The notes beneath the pieces were generated by a model. The model did not search any database. It saw only the letters and a list, made by a program, of their open reading frames with translations, and was not told the origin of the DNA. Of a DNA stretch of 64,000 nucleotides, positions 18,389 to 50,680 are shown piece after piece. A program made the position numbers and the translations under genes. Position 1 is the first letter of the stretch; every line of letters starts with the position of its first letter. Source of the DNA: a virus; the IMG/VR virus record IMGVR_UViG_3300021399_000007, positions 5,874-69,873 of that record; one strand, written 5' to 3'.

Positions 18389-18457
18389 TTTGATAACTCT
18401 TTCTTTTTTTGTTATAATATAAATAGAAATATTATAAAACTAAAGGGAAGAAAATGT

Positions 18458-20257
18458 ATGAAATATGAATTAATTAATAAACCAAATAAAAATTTTTCAG
18501 CAGTTCAACAAATCCTATATAACAGAGGAATTACAGAAGATGAAATTTTACATTATGTAAATTTATCTGACTAGGATATTAATTCTCCATTATTATTAGG
18601 CGAACAAAATTTAAAGCAAGGATTAATATTAATTTTAAACACTATAAAACGAGATGATAATGCAGTAATTATTGTAGATTGCGATTGTGATGGATATACA
18701 TCTGCCGCATTATTAATTAATTATTTATATAGATTATTTCCAACATGGGTAATTGGTAATTTAGATTGGATTATGCATGATAGTAAACAACATGGGTTAT
18801 CAGATTGCTATCAAAATATCGTTGAAGGAAATTTTATAACTAATAAACAATATTCATTGGTTATATGTCCAGATTCAAGTAGTAATGATTATAAATATCA
18901 TAAATTTTTATATGATAATGGAATCCAAACATTGGTATTAGATCACCATTTAGCAGATCATATTAGTGATTATGCTGTGATTATTAATAATCAACTTTCT
19001 AATTATCCTAATAAGGAGTTATCTGGAGTTGGTGTAGTTTGGCAATTTTGTCAATATATAGATTCAATATTAGAAGTTAATTATGCAAATGATTTTCTTG
19101 ATTTAGTGGCACTTGGAAATTGTGGAGATATGATGTCTTTACGTTCTTTTGAAACGCGCTATCTTATTACAAAAGGATTCAAAAAATAGAATATAAAAAA
19201 TCCTTTTATTGATTATATGCTTGATAAAAATTCATTTCCATTATCAAAAGCAGATTATATATCTTCTGATCCATAGATGGCATGTACTTCTATGGGCGCC
19301 GCTTTCTTTATTGTTCCTTTTGTTAATGCTATTACACGGAGCGGGACTCAACAAGAGAAAGAATTACTTTTTAATTCCATGCTAAATCATAAAGCTTTTG
19401 AAGAAGTTCTTTCAAACAAACGAGGACATAAATTAGGAGAAAAAGAAAAATTAATTTTACAGGCAGTTAGAACAGTTACAAATGTTAAAAATAGACAAAC
19501 AAGAGCAGAAGATGCAGGTTTGGCTATGTTAGAAAAAATGATTGAAACTAATCACATGCTTGACCATAAAATTCTTTTATTCTTATTAGAACCAGGCCAA
19601 ATTGATTCTGAAATTCGTGGTTTAATTGCAAATAAATTCATGGCAAAATATCAAAGACCATGTTGCTTATTAACACGGACCAATAGAAATGGAAAAGAAA
19701 CTTATGAAGGTTCAATGAGGGGATATACAAAAACTGGCATTGATAGTTTTAAAGAAGTGCTTGAACAATGTCCTGGTATTACCTATGTAGAAGGTCATGA
19801 TAATGCGGCGGGCGTTGGTATTGAGGCAAACCATATCGAAGACTTTCTTTACCACATTGACCAGCTTTTAGAAGATGTTTCTGTTGAGCCTATTTATAGA
19901 GTAGATTATGATTTTAAAGAAATTGATAACAATAATCAACTCATTTTAGAAATTGCAAGTATGAATGATTATTGGGGTCAAGATATTGATAGAGCATATG
20001 TAAATATTAATTTTAAAATTACAAGTTCTAATTTTCAAATTATGAAAAGTAATACTTTAAAATTTAATCTTCCGAATGGGTTATCTATTATTAAATTTAA
20101 TGGAACTGATGAGGAAATTACTCAATTTACAACTACAGGATATTTAGAATTAAATGCAATCTGTAAATGCAATGCCAATGAATGGAATGGTCGCGTTTAT
20201 CCGCAGCTGTTAATGGAAGATTATGAAATTATAGATTCCTCTAAATATTTCTTTTAA
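18458..20257 (+). CDS. DHH-family phosphoesterase (RecJ-like exonuclease), 3 in-frame TAG
   Basis: DCDCDGYTSAALL and LVLDHHLADH DHH motifs. TAGs at ~18570, 19189 and 19274 join the N-terminus to track ORFs 18773..19189 and 19277..20257 in one frame. Confidence 0.6.
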
Positions 20258-20398: not shown

Positions 20399-20680
20399 AT
20401 GGAATTTAAATGTTCAGAAATAAAAAAAGTAGCTATTGGAGATGAAATTTTTACAATAAAAACAGAACAAGATGAGAAGAAATTAAAAGGCTATCAATTT
20501 GATTCTTTAGTATATAGATATATTAGGGCTAGAGAGCAAATGGCAGAATATGAATATTTGAGAGATCGACAGAGTAATATCTCTAAGCATACTGAGTGGA
20601 CTGTATATCGACAAAGAGCGAATAGAGATATAATGCGTTTTGTTCAAATTTTAGATGAAGTAATTGGAGAGCATGAATAA
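20399..20680 (+). CDS. hypothetical protein
   Basis: ORF following a terminator/promoter module at ~20280-20372. Confidence 0.4.
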   Translation: MEFKCSEIKKVAIGDEIFTIKTEQDEKKLKGYQFDSLVYRYIRAREQMAEYEYLRDRQSNISKHTEWTVYRQRANRDIMRFVQILDEVIGEHE

Positions 20681-20689
20681 TGATATGTG

Positions 20690-20854
20690 AAAAATGCAAA
20701 TTTTTTAAAGATATTTTTGGAAATTATGTTCAATGTTGTAAAACTGGAAGATTCCTTAATTATGAATATTGGCATAATGAAGATCCCTATGATTGTCCAA
20801 TAAAATCTAAAGAAAAGGAGGAAGTAGAACCTAATGTTTTTAACTAAAAAACAA
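20690..20854 (+). CDS. small Zn-ribbon protein
   Basis: CEKC...CC...C pattern. ATGA overlap with the upstream gene. Confidence 0.3.
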
Positions 20855-22023
20855 GAAGAAGGTTTGAAAGTTGCCGTAGCCAGACACCGTGCAAATGAAA
20901 AATACACAGTGATTGCTGGCTACGCCTAAGAGCTGGTACAGGAAAATCCACACTTGTAAGATATATTATTGATGCTCTTAATGTTGAAGAAGATAGAGTA
21001 TGTCATTGTGCTTTTACAGGTAAAGCCGCAGAAGTATTAAAGAAAAAGGGAAATAAAAATGTAGCAACTCTTCATCGACTATTATATGAACATATACCGC
21101 GGCCAGCGGGTGGTTTCTTTAGAAAACCAAAACCATTTATTGATTATGATGTAATTGTAGTTGATGAAGTTTCTATGGCTCCTAAATCTTTAATGGAATT
21201 GCTGTTTAAACATCAAGTATATGTTATTTGTTTAGGAGATCCATTTCAGTTGCCGCCCATTGATAAAGATGAAGATAATCATTTATTAGATGATCCTCAC
21301 ATTTTTCTTGATGAAATTATGAGACAGGAAGAAGATTCTGAAATTATTCAGCTTACCATGAAAATCAGAAATCAAGAACCGATTGATTATTTTAATGGTA
21401 ATGAAGTAAAAATTATTCCTTACTCAGATTTAAACACTGGGGTATTACAATGGGGAGATCAGATCCTAACCGCAACAAATGCAAAGCGTCAAGCTATTAA
21501 TAATCAAATGCGCGCACTACAGGGTAGGACTGGTGAGCCTGTTGATGGAGATAAAATTATATGTCTTCGTAATTATTGGGAAGATTCAAGTTTAAATGGT
21601 GATGCTTTAATCAATGGAACTATTGGTATTCTTCAAAATAGTTTTCAAACTTGGAGAGAAATTCCCAGATTTGTACAAAGTGATATAAGAAAATTTGATG
21701 TTTTAGTTGGTGATTTAGTGGTACCAGAAACTAATGATGTTTATCAAATGACAGAAATGGATCGTCAAATGATTATCACTGGAGAAAAATGTTGCGGATG
21801 GCAATTGTCATATAAGTTAGGAAAGCTTCGATTAAAATATGGTGATTTAGTGCCTAAAGAATTTGCCTATGCATACGCAGTTACTTGTCATAAAGCACAA
21901 GGAAGTTCTTGGCCTAATGTAGTAGTTTTAGAAGAATCTTTTCCATTCGATAGGATGGAGCATGCTCGTTGGCTTTATACTGCATGTACGAGAGCAGAAA
22001 AAAAATTAGTTTTAGTACGATAA
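20834..22023 (+). CDS. Dda-like SF1B DNA helicase; N-terminus and Walker A lie in different frames (-1 frameshift or indel near 20920-20930)
   Basis: MFLTKKQEEGLKVAVARHRANEKYTVIAGYA(TAA) continues in the -1 frame as LRAGTGKSTL...VVDEVSM..., matching the T4 Dda N-terminus LTEGQKNAF...HHVTINGPAGTGKTTL. The downstream frame is track ORF 21175..22023. Confidence 0.65.
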
Positions 22024-22095: not shown

Positions 22096-22848
22096 ATGTC
22101 GAAAATAATAGATATGACTGGTGCTAAAATTAATTATTTAACTGTTATTGAAAGAGGTCCAAATACAGCAGATGGCCGAGCTCAATGGCTGTGTTAGTGT
22201 AAGTGTGGTAATAAAAAATTAATTAAAGGAAAAGATTTGCGAAGCGGAAGAGTTAAAAGCTGCGGATGTTTACAAAAATAGCGAGCCAGTGAAGTAAATA
22301 CTATAAATGAAGTAGGTAATCAATATGGATTTTTAACAGTATTACGGCGAGCTACAAAAGAAGAAGCTCCAAAAAGTAATCAAAGAAATGTTTTTTGGGT
22401 TTGTTCTTGTTTGAATTGTGGAAACCCCTATTTTATTGCGGATGCTCATTCTTTAAGAACTGGACGATTAAATAGTTGCGGTTGTTTAATTAGCAAAAAT
22501 GAAACTAAAATTAAACAATTACTAACAAAAAATAATGTTTCTTTTGAAACCCAAAAAACTTTTAATAATTTATTAGATAAACAAAAATTAAGTTTTGACT
22601 TTTATATAAACAATCAATATATAATAGAATTTGATGGTAAACAACATTTTATTCAAGATAGTGGTTGGAGTAATAGAGAAAAGTTAGAATATACTCATAA
22701 TCATGATTTAATAAAAAATAGATATTGTTTTGAACATAACATTCCATTAATTAGGATACCATATAATGCAGAATATACTTTTGAAGATTTAAAACTAGAA
22801 ACTACAAGATTTCTTTTAACTCCAGAGAATGAAGAAAAATATTATTAG
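22096..22848 (+). CDS. Putative free-standing homing endonuclease (repeated Zn-binding C..C..GN/SCGC modules + C-terminal EFDG..H nuclease-like domain), 2 in-frame TAG
   Basis: Repeats KINYLTVIER...WLC(TAG)CKCGN...KSCGC and FWVCSCLNCGN...NSCGC. C-terminal IIEFDGKQHF...HN. TAGs at ~22197 and ~22280. Confidence 0.45.
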
Positions 22849-34298: not shown

Positions 34299-34861
34299 TT
34301 ACTCAGTTTTAACTGGTAAATTTGTTTTTATATCTCTTCCACCATTTGCATATCTAGCAAAATCGACCACTGCTTTAAATTGTTTTGGATCAAAACTATC
34401 AACAATTTTTGCAGCAGCTTCCGCATTAGCGGGTAAATCATTAATCATTTGATTAATGATTGCACCAACACTGGTATTATTTACAAAACTTGTTTCCTTA
34501 ATGTTATTAAGTTGTTCAAAAAGTTCATTATATTCATCTTCATTGATAACTTTAAAGAACTCTTCATAAAAACCGTTACTCTTTAAAGTATCATATAATT
34601 TAAATTCATCTTCTCTTTGTTTTTCAGTGAAAGAAATGTTTGTATACATATAAACTAAATTTAATTCAAAATATAAATTTAATTTAAACTCATTATACAT
34701 TCCATTCTACAAAGATTTTTGTAATGTAATCATTAATAAATCATATTTATCTTGCGCTGGCAAATACTGAAGAACTTCTACTTTTTGTCCACAAAAATCA
34801 AAAGTTTTTACTTCTGTATTTACCTTTAATTTCATATTAGCATAAGATACTTTCATATCAA
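34299..34861 (-). CDS. hypothetical late protein (1 in-frame TAG)
   Basis: A minus-strand sigma-70-like promoter TTGACAAAATAAAAATTTTATGTTATACTATAAT plus RBS AAAAGGAG at ~34865-34935. The frame continues through TAG into track ORF 34299..34700. Confidence 0.4.
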
Positions 34862-34934
34862 TATCTCCTTTTAACTCTTGTTTATACTAATTATAGTATA
34901 ACATAAAATTTTTATTTTGTCAAATTTTTTATTA

Positions 34935-35702
34935 TTACTAAATAGATTTTATTGTTTCTCCAATTGTTTCATTAGCGATATTTTGTAATGTTTGTTTTAA
35001 ACTTACATTTATTGAACGCTATGCTTCTTTATTTTCTTTTTTCTTTTTAATTAAATATTCTTGAATAGCCTAGAAATTGTTTAATTTATTATTAATAATT
35101 TCTTGTGCCATATTAAATAATTGTTCAATACTTAATGTAGTAGCTTGATTTGATTTTACTGCCATCTACATATTATTAATAGTAGTATCACCTTCTAAAG
35201 TACCTGATAAGTTTGTTACTTTCATTACATAACTCATAAATTGTTCCATATTATCTTCTGGCACATTGGTATGAATAAAATGTTCATGTAATAATAAAGT
35301 CGCATAAGCTTCATTTATGCTACCGAAAGAAGAAACCAAAACGCCATTCCATTTTTGTCCACTATATGGATAAAGCCATAAAATATATGCTCCGCCATTA
35401 GATCTTTTATATTTATTAAATCTCTAATATGCTGTATTATATGTAGATTTTAACGAGGAATAATTAAAATTTTTAGTGTCCTATTGTATAGATTGTTCAA
35501 TTTTTGTAGCATGCTCTCGTAACATTTTTGCATTATTTCTATATCTAACAATTACATTACCATATCTATCTACATCAACTTTTAAAAAATCTGACATATT
35601 ATTAATTACATAAGTTTCTGGAACTCCTTTAGATCCAACCCATACATATGTTGTAGCAACTATTTGTCCCAATGCAGCATTTAAATATTCTTGAAATTTC
35701 AT
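34935..35702 (-). CDS. hypothetical late protein with several in-frame TAG
   Basis: Track ORF 35481..35702 continues in the same frame through about 5 TAG codons to TAA at ~34935. Confidence 0.4.
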
Positions 35703-35753
35703 TGCTAACTAATAAGTTTCTAAAATCCCTTTTTTTATTTCCTAAGAAAAATT

Positions 35754-36065
35754 CTATTTTCGAATTCTTAATCTCTCTTTTAAATAGATATCATATTCTG
35801 TAGTGTCTTTATAGGCTGCACCATTAGCTTTACAATTTGCTTTAAAACTATGCCAAGCTTTTATAGTTCGTTTTAATGCTGTCTCAAAATTAGAAATTTG
35901 CTTTATCATTATTTGATATTTTTCTATAAACTTTGATGCAGTTTGTATAATAATTTTATAGCTCTTTTGAACTTCCTGCGCTTCAACAGAGGTTGATGCA
36001 TTTAAAATAATTTTAGTATTAACATCTAATTCATTTTTATCAAATTGAATATCTACTTGTGACAT
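35754..36065 (-). CDS. hypothetical protein
   Basis: ORF preceded by a terminator hairpin AGGGAGGGTTAATTATAATCCTCCCT at ~36085-36115. Confidence 0.4.
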   Translation of the reverse strand: MSQVDIQFDKNELDVNTKIILNASTSVEAQEVQKSYKIIIQTASKFIEKYQIMIKQISNFETALKRTIKAWHSFKANCKANGAAYKDTTEYDIYLKERLRIRK

Positions 36066-36140
36066 ATTTATTTATTCCTTTATAATAAAAAATAGGGAGG
36101 ATTATAATTAACCCTCCCTATTCTATTTTTATTTAATTAA

Positions 36141-37145
36141 TTATCCCTGTACTACATCATCTGTTTCAGTTCCTTCTCCAGTATGAGTTCCATTGACGGA
36201 ATCATCAATAGATTCATCAATATTGAAACCAGTTGGATGCGGGAATAATGGCTTAACTTCATTCTTAGCCTCGGTTGCATCATCAACTACCTGAATAGCG
36301 CAAAGAACTTTATTAGTCTTATTAAAATATGTATATCCAGGGAATGCATCCATAGTAAAGGTGAAGGTACTAGGATCACCAGTAGCTGCCATTGAGAAAG
36401 TAAAGTTAGACTGAATTTTAACATTCGGGAATGTTAAATTAGCAGGTAAATCTTTACCATCGGACTGACGTCTAAACAATGTATCTGCTTCTACATAGTA
36501 ATAACCACCGAAAGTACCTGCATCAATCTGAAGCTCAGATACAGTACTAGATGCCTTAATTACATAATAATCAACCATCACTGGCCCGCTACTTGCAATA
36601 GCGGTCGCTTCTGCAACACCAGTAATCTGTAATTTCTTACCGCCAGTAGCCACAGACCAGCCTTTTAAGATTTCACCAGTAAGATCACCATACTCATCTA
36701 ACTTAATAATATAAATAGGAGCTGTAGGACAAATTGTTTCACTTTGCTCTAAAGCATCCGTTAAATCAATTTCTAATGTATTATTAGTAGCTGTAATGGT
36801 AGCAGTTGCTGCAGCGATTGCATTAGTAGTCTGATGGAAATGAACAGATTCACTAGATAATCCTTTAATAACACCAGCACCAGAAAGCATAGCGAAACTA
36901 ACAGGAGAAAGTAAGGCGTCTTCAACAGTAAATGTAAGAGTTTTCTAACCTTCCCAAGCAATTAAACGAGTATTACCACGACCACCTGTTGCATATACCG
37001 TGGTAGCCGCACCTTCCATCGAAGATGTTTTTGCAGTATCAAGATAGAATACAGGCTGACCTTTTTCAAAAGTCTTATCACCAATTTTTTGCTGATTCTT
37101 TGCCTTAAATACTACATTAGCAATTTCACGCACACCAAATTTCAT
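36141..37145 (-). CDS. Virion structural protein (possible tail tube/major tail protein), 1 in-frame TAG
   Basis: RBS AAGGAGG. Track ORFs 36945..37145 and 36141..36890 share a frame and are joined through TAG at ~36943. Confidence 0.45.
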
Positions 37146-37190
37146 TTGGATTTCCTCCTTATATTTTTATACAAAATCTTATTATTTTTA

Positions 37191-38557
37191 TTATTTTGAA
37201 TCATCTTCATAGATGTCTTTTAACCAGTCTTCAGGATCCTACATACCAGTTGCCCCAGCAACTTTAAATCGTTCCCAAGTGTCATAATGCAATTTTAATT
37301 CAAACCGATTAAATTCATCCATCAATTGATAAACAGTATAATTCATTAAATCATTTATATTTTTTTGCTATCCAACAGCAAGAATAGATATATATCGACT
37401 TAAAATAGAGATTTTTGTTTTTGGCGCCAGCTTCGCCCTTTTTTCTTGACCTCTTTTAAGTTTATTTGCAATTTTTTGTGATAAACTTCCACTTGGATTA
37501 TACTATTTATTCTTTTCATTCTTTAGGCAAAATATATCAATTAAAATCTATTTAAAATTATCAAAATTTTTTTCATCAATTTTAGACACATCATTAGTCT
37601 ATGGATTTCGTAATTGTATTGCCTAAAGTTCCAACCTAATTTCATAAGTTGGAAACAACAAAGCGAGAATAGATAAAACATTTAATCTAGCCTATTGAGA
37701 TTCTAAATTTTTTTCTCGTATCATTGTCATTATTATATTAAAATTTGACAAGTTCGATAAATCAATTTTGTCCTAAGTGAAAAAGACATCTTTATTAAAA
37801 TTTAATAATTCGCATCCAGGCCAAAACCGTGACTATGTAATATAAGCAATTTCTTTTAATCGCGGCTGATGAATTGTAATTCTAGCTTCTGGAAATGGAA
37901 TATCATTTCCCGATAATAAAAGTAATTCATCAATCATTTTTTATTAATCCATCCATCATAATTAGGCATTTTATCATGCTAACTTGGTAATACATCATCC
38001 GTACCATGAACAGCAGAATAAGTTAACGTATAACCAGAAAGAGTTTCATCAAGTACGAGCTAATTACAACCTGTAAATTGGAAAGTTCCAAGCCCAGATA
38101 ACCGCGCATTATTAAGAATCCCATCAATATATCCACAAATTTTTAATGGCCTAACTCTAAAATTACCAAGATCCCAACAATCAGTGTGACATAATACATC
38201 AATATAAACATTGCAATCTCTAAATTGTGGATTTGTTATAGTTGGTTTAAAATTATCAAAAGAAAAAATTAAATAACTTTTAACTTCCTAATGCTAAGAC
38301 ATCATAATTTTTGGTTCAAATTTTATATATCCTAGCTATCTTAATTTAGCCAAACTCATATCTTTAATCGCATTTTGATAAATAACACTGTTTGTATCTA
38401 AACAATCTTTTGTATTAATAACTAGTAATTTTTTTAATTCATTACTATAAGGTTGACTTTCTATAAACAATTTTCGTAAAATTGTTTCTAAATCTTTTTC
38501 ACATGATAAAAAAGATGAAGTAAAATCAACTGGTCTTAAAATTAAATCTCTTTTCAT
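37191..38557 (-). other. TAG-dense late coding region (at least 2 genes); frames only partly resolved by eye
   Basis: No ORF of 60 aa or more in any frame. A minus-strand frame downstream of 38336..38557 reads protein-like sequence (LGYIKFEPKIMMSQHQEV...HSHGFG...) with TAG about every 20-40 codons and real TAA TAA TGA stops at ~37725. A separate ~109 aa frame with 2 TAG ends at TAA 37191. Confidence 0.35.
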
Positions 38558-38582
38558 ATGTTTTATCTACTCCTTTTATCTC

Positions 38583-39566
38583 TTAAAGGGCAGTAATTGT
38601 TACATCTAATGTAATATCTTCTTGGCCCTCAACTCTATATATTAAAGTAAATACTCCCAATTCACCAATAGAAACATTCAATGGAATAATTTTTAAAGAG
38701 CTATTTAGTGAATCTTCTTTATCTTTCCATCTTATATACCAATGACCATTTTCAGCATTATGAATTTCATAATATGCCTTGCTGTATTGCTGAACTGCAG
38801 TTGGTCCATCAATATAAGCGGCGGTCTCATCGATAGGATTTTCCTGTCCAGACTCATCGTGTTCAGCAGCGACTGCATCCGCAATAGAATTTTCAAAAAA
38901 TTCATCTAAGAATACTTGAATAATACCATCTCCATAATAGGGATCTACACCAACTACTTGCCAAGTTTTTTCTGTATTATATCTTGGATCTAAAACTTTT
39001 ATAGTTTTAAATCTTTCAAAATAATTATTTGTAGTTTCATCTGCAGCAATATACATTACTAATGAATAATTCAATGTATTCCATTCAATACCCGCTTTTT
39101 GAGTCCATTCAATAGAAGTCTCAACAGGTCCTCGAATATAAACCCAATATAAATTATCCCCAACTTTAACCTATTGATCACATCTTCTAATCTCAGATCT
39201 AAAATAAGCATCTTCTTCAAGATACTCTAAATACACAAGCCAATGTGTATCAGTTTCTTTCCATGTAAAAACATCTCCAGGTTTAATATCAATATCAATC
39301 TCCCCCTAAGACGTTTTTCCCATTCTTGGAGTATTTAAACAAATGTCTTTATATGGGATGGAAAGAATTTTATTATCATAAGCTGGTTTATTTTTATCTG
39401 GATTAATTAAACACCTAAATTCTTTTCCATCTGATAATATCGCTGTGGCAGCTTGATAAGAATATAATAAAGCTTTTTTTAGACTTTTTAATTTATCATT
39501 AATAAATCTTTGCTCTTGATTGCCACCTTGATATTTTAACCTTTTATTTAATAATTCTAAGGACAT
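38583..39566 (-). CDS. Virion structural protein (2 in-frame TAG)
   Basis: Track ORFs 39306..39566 and 38583..39074 are in one frame, joined through TAGs. Confidence 0.45.
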
Positions 39567-39593
39567 TTTATTAATCTCCTTTAAAGAATTTTA

Positions 39594-39932
39594 TTATATT
39601 CTATCTCCATTTGATAATATACTTTTTTGTAACTCATTCATTAATCCTAAACATTCAAAAATCGTTCTACGATAACAAAGAAAATCATCATCATCTATTA
39701 ATGAATAAAGTCCTTCTAATTTATTTAATAAGGGAAAGAAGATTTCTGAATAGCCGCAATTCATTAATCTTTGCATTCCCGCTAATTCTTCTAATATTGT
39801 TTGTAATGGTTTTTTCCAATCAGCGCCCTATTCTCTACTAGGTAAAAGTTTATAAATTTGATTAATAAGATTTTGTAATCTATCATGAATTGTTAAATTA
39901 TCCATAACAATATTATATTTTAATATCATAAT
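39594..39932 (-). CDS. small late protein (1 in-frame TAG)
   Basis: ATG at ~39932 (MILKYNIVMDNL...). The frame continues through TAG into track ORF 39594..39776. Confidence 0.4.
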
Positions 39933-39934
39933 AA

Positions 39935-40528
39935 TTATCCCCCTGCCTTTTCATTGATAATTCTTTTATCAATTAAATCATCAACCGTATAATTAACAGG
40001 AGTTCTAAGCAATCCAAGAGTAGATTTCATAATACCATTCTTATTAGGAGCCCTTCTTTTATATAAACGCTGAAGATGAAATCCTTCTCTTTCGTAATCT
40101 TTCTTTAATTGAAGAAGCTTTTGCATATGATTAGCTTGAGAAGTAAATTTGAAATCAGACCCGCTATATTTCATTCGTGTATTTTCTACACTAGCAAGTT
40201 GTTGACTTAACCATTCTACAATCATATAAACAGCAAGAATATTTATCTCTTCATGTGTTAATGAATTATTAAAATATCCTTCATTATAAATAATTGCAGG
40301 CACTTCCTCATTATCACTTTCTGCCCCTTGATAAGTTGATTCTTCTGTAACTTCAAGCAATTCATAATCCCATAAATTAATACGAGGAAATTCAAATTTT
40401 TCAATAGCAGAAAGTAAAAGCTGTTCTAACATTTTGAATGTATCTAATTCTGTTAATTCTAAATACATATCATCTGTAATTTTTGAAAGAAAGGAGTCAT
40501 ATACAAGTGAAAAAGCAGTTGTATTCAT
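39935..40528 (-). CDS. hypothetical structural protein
   Basis: 197 aa ORF with an RBS AGGAGGTAT. Confidence 0.45.
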   Translation of the reverse strand: MNTTAFSLVYDSFLSKITDDMYLELTELDTFKMLEQLLLSAIEKFEFPRINLWDYELLEVTEESTYQGAESDNEEVPAIIYNEGYFNNSLTHEEINILAVYMIVEWLSQQLASVENTRMKYSGSDFKFTSQANHMQKLLQLKKDYEREGFHLQRLYKRRAPNKNGIMKSTLGLLRTPVNYTVDDLIDKRIINEKAGG

Positions 40529-40549
40529 TTATATACCTCCTATTAAAAA

Positions 40550-41137
40550 TTATTCTTTAGCAACTGGCTTATACCTACGTCCAGATGGCGCGGCGGCTGT
40601 ATTATCAGATTTTATCGGACTAGTCCTTCTCTTAATAGTAGTTTGAACATTCTCATTACTATCATTTTCTGTTTCACTATCATACTTTGTATTTTGAATT
40701 TCAATAGCTCTAGTAACATCAAATCCTAATTTATCTTTAATAGCTTGACGCTTATTCATATCATTAAGCGGCATTTTAACTGATAAATCTTTAATCATAT
40801 CTTTAATTACATCTGGAGCAAAATCTAAACAATCTAAAAATTGATCTAATGTGCCAACTGTTAATAATTTTTTCACATCATCCTCTGAATAATGATATTC
40901 AGGTTCAGAATTTTGATTAAATAATGCAGTAACCACATTTTCATCAACAATTTCAAGATATTCTTTTAAAATTACATCTCCGCCAGGGATGAAAGATAAT
41001 TTTTCTAATTCATCAAATGAAATATCCTTACTTTCATGAGGATAAAAATTTCTATGAACTCCCAACTCAGGAACATCATAGCCAACAACACCATTAAATT
41101 TATTAACGACTTTTACCATTTCATTTTTGTCAATCAT
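40550..41137 (-). CDS. hypothetical structural protein
   Basis: 195 aa ORF with an RBS AAAGGAG. Confidence 0.45.
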   Translation of the reverse strand: MIDKNEMVKVVNKFNGVVGYDVPELGVHRNFYPHESKDISFDELEKLSFIPGGDVILKEYLEIVDENVVTALFNQNSEPEYHYSEDDVKKLLTVGTLDQFLDCLDFAPDVIKDMIKDLSVKMPLNDMNKRQAIKDKLGFDVTRAIEIQNTKYDSETENDSNENVQTTIKRRTSPIKSDNTAAAPSGRRYKPVAKE

Positions 41138-41159
41138 ATTAAAACTCCTTTTATCTCTT

Positions 41160-41200
41160 TATAAAAAAAATAGGGGAGAAGAATTAAAATAATTATTCTC
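41160..41200 (-). terminator. Intrinsic terminator immediately downstream of the major capsid gene
   Basis: Minus-strand hairpin GGGGAGAATAATTATTTTAATTCTTCTCCCC followed by a T-run. Confidence 0.45.
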
Positions 41201-41217
41201 CCCAATTAAACAATATA

Positions 41218-42282
41218 TTATTTTGTTCCAATATATTTCTTAAGTGTGGTGTTTTGATAAATGCAGATTCCAGGATTAACCATATAAGTAGCTACACCAA
41301 GTTTCTGATAAGTCTGAATCTCAGTAGACCAATCACGATTATCAAAAGATTTCACTTGAGCAGTGCCTTCAAATGCAACTTTTACGGGCTTTTCAGCGCC
41401 AGTAGGAATAATATAAGCAAGAGAAGGATCAATGACCTTATCTGCATATAACGCAGTCTTACCAATATTATCTTCAAAAGATTGAGGAAGAATAATTACA
41501 CGATGGCCCTTATAAATTGCAAAGTATCCATTATTCCAAATTTCCTCTTTCATCCCATCCGACCAAGTATTAGCACTTGCAGGAAGCATTGTAGCAGCAA
41601 ATTCAAAAGTGCAATAAATTGTGCTCTTTCCACCATAAGAATCAGCGATCTGAAGTAATTTATCCATTTCAGCTTCACTGAATGTTGTCTGAACAGACTT
41701 CTGAAGATTAGGAACATTATTAATTAAAGCTTCAAGAGCCTTAGCAATTTCCTTATAAACTGCTTCATCCATTCCTTCAAGTACAAGACTATAATAATCA
41801 TTCATAGTCATGCGGCCATCAAGCAGCTCTTCCCATTCAATACGAGCAGCGCCGCCATAAGCAGCAGTTGGTACTTCGAGTGAATATCCGTCTAACTTGA
41901 AGACTTCATATCTACCAGCTAAACCAACTCTAGTAACGAACTGTTTTGCACGTTTCTTAGAAGCCTCACTAATTCTTACCTTATAAACAGGCTTTACTCC
42001 CTGAGCAAAGGTACGGACATCAGCAAACTGACCGTATGCTTGAAGTACCTTCTGAGGAAGAACCTCGGTAAGACCGACTTCCATTAATGTATAAATAAGA
42101 TTTTTATTTTCTCTAAAATCTTGAGGAGTAGAACCAAGTTCATTTAACTCCTTAATAAATGTTTTATTCAGAGCTTCCGCTGAAAGCTTCTCTCCGCCGA
42201 AAGAATAAGCGACAGAAGGATTTAATGAAGCCTTAGCATTGGCTCTAGCTAATTCAATAAGCTGATCTCTTGTTAATGCCAT
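41218..42282 (-). CDS. Major capsid protein (probable HK97-fold), no in-frame TAG
   Basis: Position downstream of the protease/scaffold gene. Strong RBS AGGAGG before MALTRDQ. About 354 aa. Followed by a terminator. Confidence 0.55.
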   Translation of the reverse strand: MALTRDQLIELARANAKASLNPSVAYSFGGEKLSAEALNKTFIKELNELGSTPQDFRENKNLIYTLMEVGLTEVLPQKVLQAYGQFADVRTFAQGVKPVYKVRISEASKKRAKQFVTRVGLAGRYEVFKLDGYSLEVPTAAYGGAARIEWEELLDGRMTMNDYYSLVLEGMDEAVYKEIAKALEALINNVPNLQKSVQTTFSEAEMDKLLQIADSYGGKSTIYCTFEFAATMLPASANTWSDGMKEEIWNNGYFAIYKGHRVIILPQSFEDNIGKTALYADKVIDPSLAYIIPTGAEKPVKVAFEGTAQVKSFDNRDWSTEIQTYQKLGVATYMVNPGICIYQNTTLKKYIGTK

Positions 42283-42299
42283 TGTCTTTTTCCTCCTTA

Positions 42300-42887
42300 T
42301 CACTGAACTCTCTGAATCTTAACGCCCTGTTGACCATCAGGCATTGTATAAATTTTTACAACCTTCCAAGCCATTCCAGTCACCCCAGAAAGACTAGAAG
42401 CTGCACTACCACCAGACTTAATTACCTCTAAGAATCCTGTGGTCCCAGGTGTTAAATAATTACCCTCAGCAATTGCAACGCCAGTAGTTTCTGCAGTATC
42501 AGAAGTATTAGCTTCAAAAGTATTAGTTGTAAAAATATCACCAATATTTGTTTTAATTAAACGCGGATACATTTTACCATCAGTAAAATCATCCACTTTA
42601 TATACAAAATCTTTATGACTTTGTTTCCTTTCATCATAAAGTTTCTCTTCATTATAAACAAGCATAAATTCGCCATCACCAGTAAAATTTACTTCACCAG
42701 CCGCATAATCATATTTAGCAAATTGACCCTGTTCAAGTTGGGTAATTGCATTGCTTGGTTGACCACTTGCAGCCGTATTTCCTTTTGCAGGTAACTGAGC
42801 GTAAATCTGACCAGTGACAATACCAGAAAGGTGATTAGGCTCAACTTGTCCATAACCTTTTCTCTTAATTGTTGCCATTTTCAGCAT
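42300..42887 (-). CDS. hypothetical head protein (decoration/head-associated?)
   Basis: 195 aa ORF between the protease/scaffold gene and the capsid gene. Confidence 0.4.
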   Translation of the reverse strand: MLKMATIKRKGYGQVEPNHLSGIVTGQIYAQLPAKGNTAASGQPSNAITQLEQGQFAKYDYAAGEVNFTGDGEFMLVYNEEKLYDERKQSHKDFVYKVDDFTDGKMYPRLIKTNIGDIFTTNTFEANTSDTAETTGVAIAEGNYLTPGTTGFLEVIKSGGSAASSLSGVTGMAWKVVKIYTMPDGQQGVKIQRVQ

Positions 42888-42906
42888 CCTCCTAATAATT
42901 AAAAAA

Positions 42907-44238
42907 TTAATTAAGTCTTTCTTGTTCTTTAACAGCTTTCACCCAATCTGGCAGGCTGTTGTTCTCATCACCTAAATTATAGGTTATAATATCTTCTTCG
43001 TTTTTCTTTTCATCAGTCTTTTTTTCTAAAGAAAAACTAATTTTTTTATCAAAGCAAATTACAGAAAGTTTTGCTTTAATTTCATCTAAAGTATACTTCT
43101 CTTTATTACTAATAACATCTGCTTTATCTTCATCGGAAAGCATATAAAATTCAGCAATAAGAGCATCCTTCTTCTGATTATCAATTTCTTTCTTGAAATT
43201 TACAAGTTCTTGATATTGACTCTGAAGCGTACTATAACTTTCTTTTAAAGTATTAAGCTCTTCTTCGAGTAACTCATACTTTTTAGCACTATTCTTATCA
43301 TCATCATCCTTGTCATCATCAGGATCATCATCAGGATCATTTTCACCCTCATCATCCACGGGCTTATCATCCTTTTCATTATCCTTTTTAACGTAATCAG
43401 TAGGAGCAGAAGTATCCTCTATGTTATTATTAACCTCTGGAGTTGTTTCAGCATTCACTTCTTCCGCCTGAGTAAACTCAGTAACAGGTTCAATATTTTC
43501 ATCTTCAACAACCACAGTGTCTTTAAGATTCTCCATCTGTTGTCCTCCTCCGTTCAAGGCATTCTTTAAATCTTGCATCATACTATAAAGTGTGTGCTTA
43601 AAATTATCATCTAATGTAAATCTTGCACTTACATTTGGAGCCGTTACAGAAGCGCCTTCGAAGCAAGGCTCAACATCGTCTCCTAATATGCAAATTTTTT
43701 GAATAATTGCATCATTTATAATAAAGAAATCCATTCCATTGTCATAACTAGTTTCCCAATGTCCCTTAACAGATTCCTTTTGAAGTTCCATTGATTGCGG
43801 ACGCCCCTCTTCCACAGGTAAGCTGGATTCTGGGAATTGATCGGTCCAAAGGTATCCAGTAGTCATAAGATATTTATGAACAATAGTGTTACCCATGCCA
43901 TCATTGTCTTCAAAATTTTGGAACCAAACTTTTGCGTCTGGTGCTACAAATCCATAAGGAACAGTTTGACATTCGAATTTAATTCCTTCATCATCAATAA
44001 TAACTTTTTCTCCATGATCTGTAAAATCTTCTTTACTTTCTCTATAATAACCAACAATAGGAGCGCCGCGAAGAGTTTTACCAATTTCAGCTGCAACTTC
44101 TTCTGTAATGAAAGTATGGTTTCTATTAGCTCCTACATAAAGAACCTTAATCTCACATTTTGACATTAAGGGATTAATATCAAGAGGTTGAAGATTTAAA
44201 AATTCAGGAGAGTCTATAGTCGCAACTGATTGATGCAT
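42907..44238 (-). CDS. Putative prohead protease/scaffold fusion protein
   Basis: 443 aa with a globular N-terminal domain and a C-terminal highly acidic stretch (DDDPDDDKDDDDK) plus coiled coil (ELLEEELNTLKESYSTLQSQYQELVNF). Lies between portal and capsid. No TAG. Confidence 0.45.
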   Translation of the reverse strand: MHQSVATIDSPEFLNLQPLDINPLMSKCEIKVLYVGANRNHTFITEEVAAEIGKTLRGAPIVGYYRESKEDFTDHGEKVIIDDEGIKFECQTVPYGFVAPDAKVWFQNFEDNDGMGNTIVHKYLMTTGYLWTDQFPESSLPVEEGRPQSMELQKESVKGHWETSYDNGMDFFIINDAIIQKICILGDDVEPCFEGASVTAPNVSARFTLDDNFKHTLYSMMQDLKNALNGGGQQMENLKDTVVVEDENIEPVTEFTQAEEVNAETTPEVNNNIEDTSAPTDYVKKDNEKDDKPVDDEGENDPDDDPDDDKDDDDKNSAKKYELLEEELNTLKESYSTLQSQYQELVNFKKEIDNQKKDALIAEFYMLSDEDKADVISNKEKYTLDEIKAKLSVICFDKKISFSLEKKTDEKKNEEDIITYNLGDENNSLPDWVKAVKEQERLN

Positions 44239-44415
44239 AATAAAATTCTCCTTTCATTCCCTCATATTTATATTAAAAATTTAGGCATTTTCTTTAACGG
44301 CTTTTGTCCAAAAAATTTTTTAGCTCATTGATTCTTTATTTTGTAAAGTTTTTGTTGATTTTTCATCATCAGCTTTTTCCGGCCTGCCCGCGCCATCTCC
44401 ACTTTCTGAACCACC

Positions 44416-45888
44416 CTACTTGCGATTAAGAACTTCCGCATTCATAGTGCTAGACATTAATGGAGGAATAAATACATTAACCAAATCAAGAATATCATTT
44501 TCAAAATAAGCAGTAGCCAATACCGCACTTTGTGCTTGACCCAATGCTATTTGCGGCAACATTTTAGAATAACCTAATTGAGTATGTTCCTTATATTGTT
44601 TAGCTAAATCTTTATAATTATAGATTGTAGTAGGAAGAATTTGTGCTCTATAAGTAACCTTTTTTGGACTTCGATTATAAGGTATTAATAGAGTATTTAA
44701 AAATGTTTCAAACTGTTGAATCAAATTCCACATTGAAGCTTCATCATTTAAGATAGATTTTTCAAGAGCAATGTTACCATCTGTGTTAAATTGCATTTGT
44801 GAAACACCTGCTTCATTATAAACAGTTCGTTCCACTTTTTCCAAATCATCTGTAGTAGTTGATGTCTTATTATCAGCCATGTCTGCGACTTCAACATCCG
44901 CAAAAGTAGTTAAAACATCAATTCCAATAGCCTTAGATAGCATTTGAACCGCATTGTTATGAAGTTGTTGCGCTTCATCTACATCAAATACTAAATCACC
45001 ATTTTTATCAATAGGCATTTTCTGAATGATAATTTTTAACAATTGTTGTTGCATTTTGCGGCGGTCGAGGTCTTGTGCCGCATCCAAATCAATAATTGCA
45101 GGAATTACCGCAATAAAAGGAGGAAAATCCTCCCCATTTAAATTGAATTTAATAACAGAACCAATTTCAAGTAAATACCACCCAGATTCATCTCCAGGAA
45201 AATCAGGCTTTAATTTTCCTTGTCTATACAGTTTATATCCTTTTTCAAATTCTGGTGGAAATACTTTTAACATTCTTGCAAGTTGTTCTGCATTAGCAAA
45301 CATATCATTAAAATATTTCATATTAAATTCAACCGCAGGATGACCATTTACCATAAAACGCGATCTACAATATTTTGGTGGCAATTCTTGTACAATAACA
45401 GTTCCATTTTGTGCAATTAAATAACCATAATAACAGCCATTTTTCATTACTTTTAATGCAACTTCTCCAAAAAATTTCTTCGCTTCAAAATTATCCAAAT
45501 ATGCTAAAACTTTATTAAAGCCCTCAAGAAGTTTTTCAGGTTTTATTGCTTCAGTATAGTAGGGTGTAACAAGCCAATCATATCTATACATATATGCCAT
45601 ATAACGGCACAATCTTTGATAAATACCGCTAATTTTATAAAAATAATTAGAGATATCTCTCATTTTATCAAGGTCGTTATAATAAATTGCTCTTAAAACC
45701 TGTTCTTTATCTGCTAATTGTGGATTTACTTTACGAAGGTCACCTAATTTAAGAATCGCATCAGATATTGACTTTACTCCAACTTTAATTTTTGCAAAGT
45801 CAATAGGCACATAACCAGTAGCCTAATTAGGAATTTGGTAATCTTCAGTTCCAATCATGTTAAAGCCTTTTTTCTTTATCTAAGCCAT
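44416..45888 (-). CDS. Portal protein (by size and position), 2 in-frame TAG near the N-terminus
   Basis: Frame extends upstream of the track start through 2 TAG to ATG at ~45888 (MAQIKKKGFNMIGTEDYQIPNQATGYVPIDF...). Lies directly downstream of the large terminase. Confidence 0.5.
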
Positions 45889-45948
45889 TCGATTAATCAA
45901 CTTTAGATACCTCTCCTTCTTTAATATCCAGCCGCCTCTAATATATAA

Positions 45949-48074: not shown

Positions 48075-49409
48075 TTCGTGTTTAAGCCTCCTATTTATGT
48101 ATTCTTCTTCAATTAAATCATCATTTAAGTCATCATCATGATCTTTCATGTGATTTAAGGATTTTTTATAATTAGTAAAATCATCATCATCTAATTCCAC
48201 ATTATCTAATCCTTTAGCTTTTGCATCTTTTTTATCTTTTTTCATTTCATTTGAAATGCGTTTATCTTGCAAATATTTTTCAATTTCTTGCGCTAATGAT
48301 TTATCTTCATAAATTAAGTTTTTATTATATGCTTTTAAATCTAAAATAATTTGATCAACAATATCTTGCGGCTAATTGCAATGATAACGTGGAATTTCTC
48401 CGCTATGAGCCTCAACAAAATCAACAATAGCAGAAGCAGAATCAATTGTATCAGCATCTTTATCTTTATTCTGCGCCTATGTAAATTTTGCGGACTTCAT
48501 CATAGCATCATAGACACGCGATAATTTCTGGTAAGAATCGATGTCGCCGCAATCAATAGCCTCATTCATTTTGAGGGATGTCTTGCAAATCATTTTTAAT
48601 GTATCAATACGTGCCGCCCCTTGAATATCAAATGAATTCATAAATTCATTATATAATTGTTCAAGAGCAACCCACTGACTGGGTTTATAAAGTCGGCCCC
48701 ATTTAACCGCAAGATACATTTTATCATCATCATCTAAATTCGCGCCAGGATCAACTATTTCGCTTTCCGCCATAAAATTTTGTTCTCTAAATGGATTTTT
48801 TGCTTGATTAAGCGCCTAGGCGTATGACTATGGTTGACCGTAAACCTGGAATATTTGGCCTAAATGTTCTCCTGTAATAGCATCCCCCCACCGCGGTAAT
48901 TCCTTATTTTGAGTTTCTGTGCTAACAAGAGTCTGATACTAGGCGGGGGATATTTTTCCTTCGCTCAATTTAACTTTTAACGAGGCCTAATACCGCGCCT
49001 TCTCTTCTGCTTCGGCCTTTTCTTTTTTAGCCTTTTCCGCGTCCATTTCTTCTTGAATTTTTTTGGTATCCGCATATCCATATTTGCTCCATTGTTTGAG
49101 CTTCATTTTAGCAAGATATTTACCAATAACAGACATTCCATTCATTTTATAAGGGTCTTTCGCAAACGCCTTATCTCTTAATACATTCCATTCAGTAGGA
49201 ATATAAGGAACATCCATTTTTTCAAGAATCCATTCAAAAGTACTAGGATCAAAATTATCTATATGCGCGGTTAAGCATGGTTTGCAAATTTCGCATTTAC
49301 TGCCATCTTTATATGTATAAAAATTTATTTGTGCAATTCTTTTGCCACACCGCTCGCATTGACATTTACCATTTGCGTCTTCTTGCTGTCCTTTTAATTT
49401 TTGCGCCAT
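48072..49409 (-). CDS. Zn-ribbon protein, possible small terminase subunit; about 7 in-frame TAG
   Basis: Track ORFs 48987..49409, 48477..48773 and 48072..48272 are in one minus frame, joined only by TAG. N-terminal CxxC...CxxC. Immediately upstream of the large terminase with an overlapping stop/start. Confidence 0.35.
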
Positions 49410-49444
49410 AAAAGTCTCCTTTCTTCATTTTTTATTTTTAAAAA

Positions 49445-50562: not shown

Positions 50563-50680
50563 GAAATACTCCTTTCTGCTAATTCATTAATTACATTATA
50601 CCAAAAAAATTTTCAAAAGTCAAACGCGGCAATTGGATATTTTTATTGATTTTTATTAAAAAATATTTTATAATATAATT

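Follow-up and report, generated by a model that had tools for sequence, protein, structure and literature searches.

We found that the gene of a Dda-like helicase in this viral DNA is interrupted within its Walker A motif by a stop codon and a few extra bases, and that the same interruption recurs in related phages. Judging from comparison of the sequences, we think it probable that ribosomes produce the helicase as a single chain of 393 aa, using a short, programmed translational bypass (a "stop-hop"). In the following, the window is the whole stretch of 64,000 nucleotides that was analysed.

In the window, an ORF (20834-20929) starts with the ATG at 20834, runs for 31 codons (MFLTKKQEEGLKVAVARHRANEKYTVIAGYA) and ends with TAA at 20927-20929. 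A second frame, which starts at 20836 and is -1 relative to the first, is open from 20899, reads ...LRLRAGTGKSTLV... and ends with the stop codon at 22021-22023. Its earliest ATG, GTG or TTG is found at 21175, and there is no start codon near the P-loop. This bears out the preliminary description, according to which the N-terminus and the Walker A motif of the helicase lie in different frames, the -1 frame being open to 22023. Its assignment of the gene as Dda-like also agrees with our results: the joined protein matches AAA_30 (E 1e-23), AAA_19 (6e-20), UvrD_C_2 (6e-19) and Viral_helicase1, and its nearest annotated relatives, with 38% identity, are named Dda-like or RecD-like helicase. The P-loop NTPase and UvrD-like C-terminal domains span the whole length of the joined protein, as in SF1B helicases of the Dda/RecD-like type. 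A megablast search of the locus against GenBank phages gave no match, and the closest isolates are just 38% identical at the protein level.

More than 100 intact homologues, each exactly 393 aa long, read EKYTVIAGYAGTGKSTLV (GYAGTGKS in the close homologues) and are 91-95% identical to the joined window protein. When the DNA is aligned to that of intact relatives, 8 additional bases stand out in the window: GCCTAAGA at 20924-20931 (or, as an equivalent placement, TAAGAGCT at 20927-20934). They separate Ala31 from Gly32 in the Walker A motif GYA/GTGKS; the preliminary description had located the shift correctly. Deleting these 8 nt from the window gives a protein of the intact 393-aa type. In the DNA the Walker A motif GxxGxGK[ST] is split by the stop; it is continuous solely if the 8 nt at 20924-20931 are skipped, and only skipping of the whole insert would restore the GYA/GTGKS of the intact homologues. 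No tRNA genes were found in the window. The parts of the helicase gene are the following:

20816..20821, plus strand: Shine-Dalgarno sequence AGGAGG of the replacement helicase start, 12 nt 5' of the ATG, read from the sequence
20834..20926, plus strand: helicase part 1, codons 1-31, read as an ORF and always 31 codons in relatives; the replacement copy of the 5' end, borne by a cassette
20924..20926, plus strand: putative take-off codon GCC (Ala31), the final sense codon of part 1; GCN in all of the about 60 alleles
20927..20929, plus strand: in-frame stop TAA, adjoining the take-off codon on its 3' side; TAA, TGA or TAG in relatives
20930..20931, plus strand: spacer GA, which varies: other alleles with an 8-nt insert have AA, AG or AT
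20932..20934, plus strand: putative landing triplet GCT (Ala); the tRNA-Ala of the take-off codon is able to pair here too
20935..22023, plus strand: helicase part 2, codons 32-393 (GTGKSTLV...LVLVR) and stop, with no start of its own before 21175

When related genomes were checked for the same split, we found about 60 independent phage contigs that are interrupted at the identical codon boundary, with varying sequences, which is far beyond chance. They comprise IMG/VR contigs, GTDB bins and one JGI contig from many assemblies, and the GTDB bins are assigned to Gemmiger, Clostridia, Bacilli, Mollicutes and Anaeroplasmatales. Most relatives of the window helicase are intact. No exact match to the junction of the window was found in IMG/VR, and the interrupted family was revealed by degenerate, gapped patterns only. 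In the one metagenome scan, an overly permissive pattern returned nearly exclusively out-of-frame P-loop matches and one true match (L127), and a scan for any insert after GCTGGCTAY gave no true case lacking the Ala codon and the stop.

The layout of the interrupted alleles is an Ala codon (GCN), an in-frame stop (TAA, TGA or TAG), 2-5 nt and then GGN, and the Shine-Dalgarno block GGAGGAAGTAGAAC is conserved across them. Insert lengths of 5, 6, 7 and 8 nt are seen, so that all three frame relations occur. The last triplet of the gap, the putative landing triplet, is GCN in 11 of the 24 gap types, ACN in 6, GTN in 5 and TCN in 2, and CCN, GAN or GGN never precede the GGN. While the window has the pair GCC / GCT, the non-GCN triplets found elsewhere are one-base neighbours of GCN. 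We note that GTN, ACN and TCN suit near-cognate pairing in the P site and would equally suit a translated Ala, Val, Thr or Ser residue.

Both parts of the gene are under selection. Part 1 is 31 codons long in every interrupted allele, and all but one of the complete loci have an intact part 2 (350-379 aa). Among interrupted alleles, the dN/dS of the downstream ORF is 0.02-0.16, and that of the first 100 codons after the gap, which have no start codon, is 0.02-0.06. This start-less ORF is therefore under strong purifying selection, which begins right at the landing site. At synonymous sites, the 5' segments of interrupted alleles differ little from one another, and their divergence from intact sisters is saturated. 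For example, part 1 of the window is identical to that of L010, an interrupted relative, and its synonymous divergence from near-identical intact relatives is saturated.

The interrupted alleles share a hairpin, the 3' arm of which directly abuts the Ala codon:

20876..20923, plus strand: 48-nt mRNA hairpin, from the folding of interrupted versus intact alleles and from synonymous-recoding controls

Its outer stem pairs GUAGCCAG (20876-20883) with CUGGCUAC (20916-20923), and its inner stem pairs CAC.GUG (20885-20891) with CAC.GUG (20905-20911). A hairpin of about 48 nt is present in all 35 interrupted alleles that were folded and in no typical intact allele. The mean MFE is -19.2 kcal/mol for the 35 interrupted and -7.6 kcal/mol for 55 intact alleles (Mann-Whitney p 3e-14, uncorrected for ancestry). 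Compared with 1000 synonymous recodings, the window hairpin has z = -2.5, and over 17 lineages z ranges from -1.8 to -6.8. The inner stems vary by lineage yet remain complementary (AGAUACAAG/CUUGUAU, UUCACAGU/ACUGUGA, AGAUACAAC/GUUGUAUCU, AUAGCC/GGCUAU). Since they sit in different registers, RNAalifold retained just 6 outer pairs over 20 hairpins; we have therefore used folding of each sequence, comparison with intact alleles and synonymous recoding. The hairpin has co-evolved with the interruption and is linked exclusively to interrupted alleles. It matched no Rfam family. On the 3' side we found no structure (the 3' MFE equals that of intact alleles, p 0.72), and in the gap we found no consistent Shine-Dalgarno-like element (anti-Shine-Dalgarno pairing ranges from -3.3 to -9.6 kcal/mol). 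The preliminary description mentions neither the 5' hairpin nor a link to a homing-endonuclease cassette.

Such a link is seen in the neighbourhood of the gene. An HNH endonuclease gene lies directly upstream in 13 of 27 interrupted loci and in none of 49 intact ones (Fisher p 1e-7, again uncorrected for ancestry). The HNH identity comes from PHROGs (phrog_2255, E 3e-23 and 9e-25); Pfam did not recognise the upstream cassette protein as HNH. Furthermore, displaced original 5' ends of the helicase gene, which differ from each other, are retained upstream of the cassette in five lineages. Four of these remnants (L010, L107, L108 and L113) stop at ...GGN TAY GCN, about 620 nt upstream, and the fifth (L120), 942 nt upstream, breaks off one codon sooner, at ...GGT TAT. 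From the HNH association and the displaced 5' ends it follows that a mobile cassette has its right junction at the gap. In the tree, interrupted alleles are scattered among near-identical intact alleles. As is characteristic of homing cassettes, the endonuclease gene of relatives goes together with the insert and is missing where the helicase gene is uninterrupted, and independent insertions have occurred at one target.

The window itself has no HNH gene; only the final 35 nt are left, and a chimeric ORF overlaps them:

20799..20833, plus strand: what is left of the HNH homing-endonuclease ORF (its last 35 nt, the remainder being deleted in this phage), from the match to L010
20680..20847, plus strand: ORF55, a chimeric leftover between orf93 (the upstream gene, which ends at 20680) and the helicase start

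Positions 20799-20860 of the window are 96.8% identical, over 62 nt, to positions 1102-1163 of L010, which contain the end of its HNH ORF and the new helicase start. ORF55 begins at the ancestral helicase start position (ATGATA) and ends with the HNH C-terminus (KSKEKEEVEPNVFN); its sole homologue lies upstream of L024, and it has no Pfam match. Two other kinds of neighbouring gene were considered. An endonuclease-like gene downstream (22096-22848) was rejected as a partner of the interruption, as it mostly adjoins intact helicases, and nearby GIY-YIG genes are present with both types of allele.

These observations suggest the following course of events. Ribosomes would initiate at the ATG at 20834, decode 31 codons and pause with peptidyl-tRNA-Ala on GCC (20924-20926) while the stop TAA occupies the A site. 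The mRNA would then slide forward by 8 nt, the tRNA-Ala would re-pair with GCT (20932-20934), and decoding would restart at GGT (20935), giving ...VIAGYA/GTGKSTLV... with a canonical Walker A motif and a predicted trans-gap tryptic peptide YTVIAGYAGTGK. At take-off the 3' arm of the hairpin (20876-20923) would be inside the ribosome, and the hairpin, refolding as the mRNA exits its channel, may act as a driver or ratchet of the forward movement. Pairing of the mRNA on exit from the ribosome has been proposed as a forward driver of bypassing (bioRxiv 10.1101/2024.12.09.627546). We note that the 3' arm must be melted within the ribosome at take-off, and the role of the hairpin would therefore be an indirect one.

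The cassette would be about 725 nt long and consist of the HNH gene, a ribosome binding site, a copy of codons 1-31 with the hairpin, the stop and 2-5 nt, and its point of insertion would be the boundary of codons Ala31 and Gly32 in Dda/RecD-like helicase genes of phages. If the junction were seamless, the conserved Walker A DNA, presumably the sequence that the nuclease cleaves, would be restored; the gap may therefore confer immunity to the nuclease, by analogy with T4 gene 60/MobA. In the window the HNH gene was later deleted ("hit and run").

Several other explanations have to be weighed against a bypass. The last triplet of the gap could be decoded by an incoming aminoacyl-tRNA, such that 2-5 nt rather than 5-8 would be skipped. 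The product would then be GYA-[A/V/T/S]-GTGKS, one residue longer than the intact protein (in the window GYA-A-GTGKS, with the peptide YTVIAGYAAGTGK). That only A/V/T/S triplets precede the GGN does resemble conservative amino-acid substitution, but of all mismatches to the Ala anticodon, those of GUN and ACN (G.U and A.C pairs) also disturb pairing the least. Since such a shift would leave the P-site tRNA-Ala on AGA, AAA, UAA or UUA, wholly unpaired, and would produce a P-loop of 9 residues (GxxxGxGKS), in contrast to the 58 intact alleles that were extracted, all of which fit G[YF]AG[TSVA]GK[ST], we consider it unlikely. A classical programmed frameshift, -1 (or +1/+2), at or before the stop is very improbable. 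The preliminary description had proposed a -1 frameshift, and the downstream ORF of the window is indeed in the -1 frame, with the two frames overlapping at 20899-20929; moreover, frameshifting is known to be stimulated when a stop codon occupies the A site (prfB). Its idea of programmed recoding is supported, but not that of slipping by -1: the stretch 20899-20929 lacks an X XXY YYZ heptamer (GAA AAA TAC is out of register, and its -1 product would lose the conserved residues), and a 3' stimulatory structure was not found. A -1 shift further upstream would give ...NEK-IHSDCWLRLRAGTGKS, and shifting anywhere 5' of the Ala codon loses the conserved YTVIAGYA strand. The variable inserts of 5, 6, 7 and 8 nt contradict this explanation as well, as no single direction fits.

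The same description had also considered an inactivated gene or an assembly indel. A stop codon within Walker A and the intact majority of relatives could point to a gene broken by insertion (a pseudogene) or to an assembly or sequencing error, but the comparative data refute this: about 60 independent contigs, which come from many separate assemblies, are interrupted, with variation, at the identical site, the dN/dS of the downstream ORF is as low as given above, and the hairpin has co-evolved with the interruption. In addition, an 8-nt non-repeat insert is atypical of sequencing error, and we regard both possibilities as extremely unlikely. Alternatively, the helicase could be made in two pieces, with termination at the TAA and re-initiation at the gap, giving 31-aa and 362-aa chains that associate. 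According to a preprint, homing-endonuclease cassettes do split genes into interacting halves (bioRxiv 10.1101/2022.08.31.505936), and T4 gp39/gp60 and the MobE-split NrdA are divided likewise. In our case, however, no ATG, GTG or TTG lies near the landing site of the window, the gap sequences have no common start-like triplet, the cut would fall into the P-loop (GYA / GTGKS), and neither the conserved hairpin nor the near-cognate landing triplets would have an explanation, which makes two chains a very doubtful solution. Finally, the gap could be excised or edited from the RNA, or it could matter only at the DNA level (e.g. as an immunity spacer) with the helicase function supplied otherwise. 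A protein could recognise the hairpin, and immunity at the DNA level is plausible; on the other hand, the stop directly follows Ala31 in every allele and all three stops are used, which points to the ribosome, and purifying selection begins right at the landing site. Furthermore, we know of no system that excises 5-8 nt from a bacterial mRNA, and we give very little credence to this explanation.

The bypass that we favour resembles T4 gene 60/MobA in many respects. In both, a mobile HNH homing-endonuclease cassette lies within a conserved motif of a phage gene of DNA metabolism and supplies the codons preceding the gap, a stop directly follows the take-off codon, the landing triplet may be matched or wobble-matched (as with GCC / GCT in the window), and the conserved DNA that is the target, here a presumed one, is broken by the gap. 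Two ORFs that jointly encode one conserved protein, the downstream one start-less and under selection, and a stop right after the take-off codon, which characterise bypass of the gene 60 type, are both found here. According to one preprint, the insert that is bypassed in T4 gene 60 interrupts the site recognised by MobA, and some phages keep the bypass after losing the endonuclease (bioRxiv 10.1101/2022.08.31.505936). On the other hand, the gap is 5-8 nt here and about 50 nt in T4 gene 60, the take-off codon is Ala (GCN) and not Gly or Asp, and the target is the Walker A motif of a helicase instead of the Toprim domain of a topoisomerase. The structure here is a 5' hairpin ending at the take-off codon, whereas the take-off stem-loop of gene 60 is 3' of take-off; a gene 60-type stem-loop containing the take-off codon, with a Shine-Dalgarno-like element in a gap of about 50 nt, is absent here. 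A single chain would be restored here via the duplicated codons 1-31, whereas the T4 gene is split into two subunits. By BLASTP, the HNH protein has no detectable similarity to T4 gp60.1 (E 0.39) or to MobA (no alignment). The proposed bypass would be analogous, not homologous, to that of T4 gene 60/MobA.

In synthetic stop-hops in E. coli, too, a peptidyl-tRNA beside a stop re-pairs a few nt downstream at a matched codon, and L277 (GCC TAA GCA GGC) has exactly their layout. These constructs were engineered and, as Weiss et al. reportedly found in 1987, inefficient, whereas the present case is natural and conserved, has its own hairpin and would involve a hop of 5-8 nt in any frame. A natural in-frame stop-hop was not known to a 2016 review (PMC5009743). 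In the +1 "shifty stop" of prfB and antizyme, as here, a pause at an A-site stop lets the P-site tRNA realign, aided by a 5' stimulator; however, their shift is a fixed +1 onto an overlapping codon, compared with 5-8 nt onto a non-overlapping triplet, and the stimulator in this type is a Shine-Dalgarno sequence and not a hairpin. The gaps of byps-type systems are longer, 27-55 nt. The mitochondrial byps of Magnusiomyces and the UUA candidate in a Streptomyces phage terminase are likewise short, natural, non-coding inserts in genes that are skipped, and systems of the byps type tolerate imperfect matches between take-off and landing (PMC10732093). They concern other organisms and genes and have neither an HNH cassette nor a 5' hairpin abutting the take-off codon. 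Searching the literature for a recoded phage helicase, we found no description. With slightly less confidence than for the bypass itself, we consider it likely that this is a widespread and so far undescribed family of mobile HNH cassettes in phages of gut Firmicutes, which would depend on a programmed hop of the ribosome by 5-8 nt across a stop codon. The hop would be powered or ratcheted by a hairpin refolding at the rear of the ribosome, and it would be the first natural stop-hop.

Natural bypassing is, to our knowledge, known from very few systems, namely the T4 gene 60 family, the yeast mitochondrial byps and the Streptomyces phage candidate. If our interpretation is true, we have here a second, independent bypass system carried by a homing-endonuclease cassette, and an insert combined with a ribosome hop would be a recurrent route by which selfish nucleases enter essential motifs while the gene is spared. 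The minimal architecture (hairpin, Ala codon, stop and 5-8 nt) would be a small and tractable model of bypassing, in which refolding of the mRNA at the exit channel could be tested as a driver of forward sliding, and the more than 50 variants in gap length, stop, landing triplet and stem would constitute a natural series of mutations. It would also explain "frameshifted" helicase genes that are annotated as pseudogenes or split ORFs, and would be relevant to gene calling in phages that also recode TAG.

The preliminary description had read the helicase gene of the window in two frames and called its product Dda-like. Both statements hold: we re-read the ORF ends in the window sequence, and a domain search matched the joined protein to AAA_30, AAA_19 and UvrD_C_2, so that it is predicted to be an SF1 helicase of the Dda/RecD-like type. 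The elements of the break are as follows:

20834-20929 (+): 31-codon ORF MFLTKKQEEGLKVAVARHRANEKYTVIAGYA, from the ATG at 20834 to the TAA at 20927-20929
20899-22023 (+): -1 frame, open from 20899, encoding LRLRAGTGKSTLV... and ending with the stop at 22021-22023; the earliest ATG, GTG or TTG of the downstream frame is at 21175
20924-20931 (+): 8 extra bases GCCTAAGA, flanked by TAC (Tyr30) and GCT GGT ACA GGA
20876-20883 paired with 20916-20923 (+): outer stem of an RNA hairpin

A protein search returned more than 100 proteins, each exactly 393 aa long and 91-95% identical to the joined sequence, encoded on contigs of up to 143 kb; all those inspected carry ...EKYTVIAGYAGTGKSTLV.... The 8 extra bases are found when the DNA of the window is aligned with two intact loci, and since they stand between TAC and GCT GGT ACA GGA, the break lies within Walker A (GYA|GTGKS) and is an 8-nt insert with a stop codon, not a 1-nt indel.

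The exact junction of the window has no match in IMG/VR. With degenerate gapped patterns, interruptions at this codon boundary came up in successive sets of 9, 38 and 15 additional viral contigs, and the same interruption is present in one JGI contig and in five bins from GTDB (assigned to Gemmiger, Clostridia, Bacilli, Mollicutes and Anaeroplasmatales). The split that the preliminary description proposed to look for in related genomes is thus seen at some 60 loci drawn from many separate assemblies; since the scans demanded GCTGG.TAY or the GTAGCC arm, they will have overlooked more divergent members. The helicases of these loci are 46-95% identical to that of the window; among the 80 top relatives retrieved irrespective of the break, 6 are interrupted. 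The layout in every true case is ...GGC TAY GCN, a stop codon (TAA, TGA or TAG), 2-5 nt and the P-loop GGN, and a scan permitting any 4-20 nt after GCTGGCTAY gave no true interruption lacking Ala and the stop. The insert measures 5, 6, 7 or 8 nt, for example:

5 nt: GCT TAA CT GGA
6 nt: GCC TAA GCA GGC
7 nt: GCT TAA A GCT GGA
8 nt: GCC TAA GA GCT GGT (the window)

Codons 1-31 (part 1) keep this length in every interrupted allele, and the remainder (part 2), at 350-379 aa, is an intact ORF in every complete locus but one. Between interrupted alleles, the dN/dS of part 2 is 0.02-0.16, and about 0.02-0.06 over the first 100 codons past the gap, upstream of any start codon. Both halves of the gene therefore look functional, and because dN/dS is low in these start-less codons, ribosomes must, as far as the sequences tell, enter part 2 at the gap, in the GGN frame. 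Of the causes considered earlier, an inactivated gene and an assembly indel are excluded by the low dN/dS of part 2 and by the recurrence of the break at about 60 loci. A programmed -1 frameshift is excluded as a fixed slip, as is +1, since the insert lengths among relatives give all three frame relations. No slippery heptamer is found within 20899-20929, and a -1 shift further upstream was rejected because the conserved YTVIAGYA would be lost.

GYA|GTGKS, the sequence of the intact proteins, comes out at all insert lengths only if the insert is skipped in full; we therefore propose that ribosomes cross the gap by a short translational bypass. The ribosome would stall while peptidyl-tRNA-Ala occupies the P site and the stop the A site, the mRNA would slide forward by 5-8 nt, the tRNA would re-pair with a cognate or near-cognate triplet, and decoding would restart at GGN. 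In 24 gap types, the triplet before GGN is GCN (11), ACN (6), GTN (5) or TCN (2) and never CCN, GAN or GGN; in the window it is GCT. This spectrum fits the main rival equally well, in which the final triplet of the gap is decoded and adds a single small amino acid (A, V, T or S). However, the P-site tRNA would then have no pairing at all, and the P-loop would exceed its normal length by one residue. Termination at the stop followed by re-initiation would cut the P-loop, and the window has no start codon near the landing site. Excision of the gap at the RNA level has no known precedent and leaves the obligatory in-frame stop unexplained.

All 35 interrupted alleles that were folded give a hairpin of about 48 nt in two tiers 5' of the gap, with a 3' arm, CUGGCUAY, whose last base directly precedes the Ala codon. 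Over the 66 nt up to and including Tyr30, MFE averages -19.2 kcal/mol in these alleles versus -7.6 in 55 intact ones (p 3e-14, with shared ancestry ignored). Compared with 1000 synonymous recodings of the peptide, z is -1.8 to -6.8 in 17 lineages (window, -2.5). The inner stem varies by lineage yet stays complementary, in places through amino-acid changes (AGAUACAAG/CUUGUAU, UUCACAGU/ACUGUGA, AGAUACAAC/GUUGUAUCU; AUAGCC/GGCUAU in place of GUAGCC/GGCUAC). RNAalifold retains just six outer pairs because the stem registers differ. No Rfam family matched, and neither a 3' structure nor a consistent SD-like element was found. In the proposed bypass, the 3' arm would be within the ribosome at take-off, and refolding of the hairpin on mRNA exit would favour forward and block backward movement, an idea already put forward for T4 gene 60 (bioRxiv 10.1101/2024.12.09.627546). 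One intact allele, L039, lacks an HNH gene but retains a hairpin like that of interrupted alleles (AUAGCCAGA/UCUGGUUAU, -13.8 kcal/mol); it may have reverted by losing the gap, or it may represent a precursor.

In a tree of part 2, interrupted alleles are dispersed among intact, even near-identical, helicases; the window and the related phage locus L010 adjoin intact L001 and L033. Synonymous divergence in codons 1-31 is low among interrupted alleles and saturated against the intact sister (window versus L001: dS 4.5 in the 5' segment, 0.25 downstream). Directly upstream of many interrupted helicases, a gene overlaps the new start codon. Its product (about 180 aa, zinc-ribbon repeats, motif ...LEFHH..P...C.NCH.ELH) is not recognised as HNH by a Pfam search and belongs to the HNH endonucleases by PHROGs (phrog_2255, E 3e-23 and 9e-25). 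The gene is present at 13 of the 27 distinct interrupted loci with sufficient flank versus 0 of 49 intact ones (Fisher p 1e-7, shared ancestry ignored). Furthermore, five lineages keep, upstream of the HNH gene, a remnant of the first 29-31 codons of the resident gene, of intact type, about 620 nt (L010, L107, L108, L113) or 942 nt (L120) from the new start. The remnants of the former four end ...GGN TAY GCN|, followed by the left end of the cassette, (G)TTTGATAAAAC..., while that of L120 stops one codon sooner, after TAT. These displaced 5' ends point to an element of about 725 nt comprising a leader, the HNH ORF, an RBS, replacement codons 1-31 with the hairpin, the stop and 2-5 nt. It inserts between Ala31 and Gly32, and the gap is its right junction.

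The window lacks the HNH gene, and the new start follows the upstream gene at a distance of just 154 nt. Since positions 20799-20860 match the HNH 3' end and helicase start of L010 at 96.8% identity, the nuclease gene has been deleted and the recoded 5' end kept. A Cys-rich ORF of 55 aa, ORF55 (20680-20847, +), begins where the ancestral helicase started (ATGATA) and its last residues are the HNH C-terminus, so that it probably represents a chimeric scar left by the cassette. A copy with 78% identity is found upstream of the intact helicase of L024, which may have lost the gap through recombination.

Throughout the window, TAG seems to serve this phage as a sense codon (for example at 34299-50583, -, and 18389-20257, +). 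If TAG is not counted as a stop, the combined length of minus-strand ORFs of at least 150 aa rises from 3440 to 6639 aa, and each gene contains 6-9 in-frame TAGs. A RecJ-like DHH gene is "split" solely by the TAG at 19187, and an in-frame TAG aligns to CAA (Gln) in relatives. There is no tRNA gene in the window.

Mobile nucleases have a hot spot in the replication module of these phages. Between the helicase and DnaE genes lie:

22096-22848 (+), window: endonuclease-like gene with zinc-ribbon repeats, a PD-(D/E)XK-like C-terminus, a weak DUF5889 match and in-frame TAGs at 22195 and 22279
L092, 3784-4359: GIY-YIG homing-endonuclease gene
L097, 4849-5427 and 7020-7811: the same
L117, 5282-6043: the same
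L120, 8395-8973: the same

The interval is about 2.7 kb in the window and only 380 nt in intact L001, which has no homologue of the endonuclease-like gene. A link of this gene to the gap was rejected, as its homologues are also found after many intact helicases. The DnaE frame of L097 and L117 is broken near a GIY-YIG gene. In L114 (IMGVR_UViG_3300045988_168855) the post-gap helicase ORF has just 107 aa before a stop and is followed by an endonuclease-like match at 1907-2260; an intron or insert may interrupt this gene a second time. A helicase homologue of Bacillus phage vB_BpuM-BpSp (KT895374, 49560-51075) matches in two pieces over about 1.5 kb, annotated as two hypothetical proteins, and may be split in a different way (intron or insert).

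Full-text literature searches turned up no report of a recoded phage helicase. The layout of the gap is that of the synthetic "stop-hops" of E. coli, for which a 2016 review knew no natural example (PMC5009743). The closest known system is the T4 gene 60/MobA cassette, which has the same logic; no similarity was detected between the HNH protein and T4 MobA or gp60.1. The helicase differs in its gap (5-8 versus about 50 nt), its structure (a 5' hairpin versus a take-off stem-loop), its take-off residue (Ala versus Gly or Asp) and its target (Walker A versus the Toprim domain of the topoisomerase). While the T4 gene is split in two, the helicase is predicted to be restored as one chain. By analogy with MobA, the gap probably stops the cassette's own junction from rebuilding the nuclease target.
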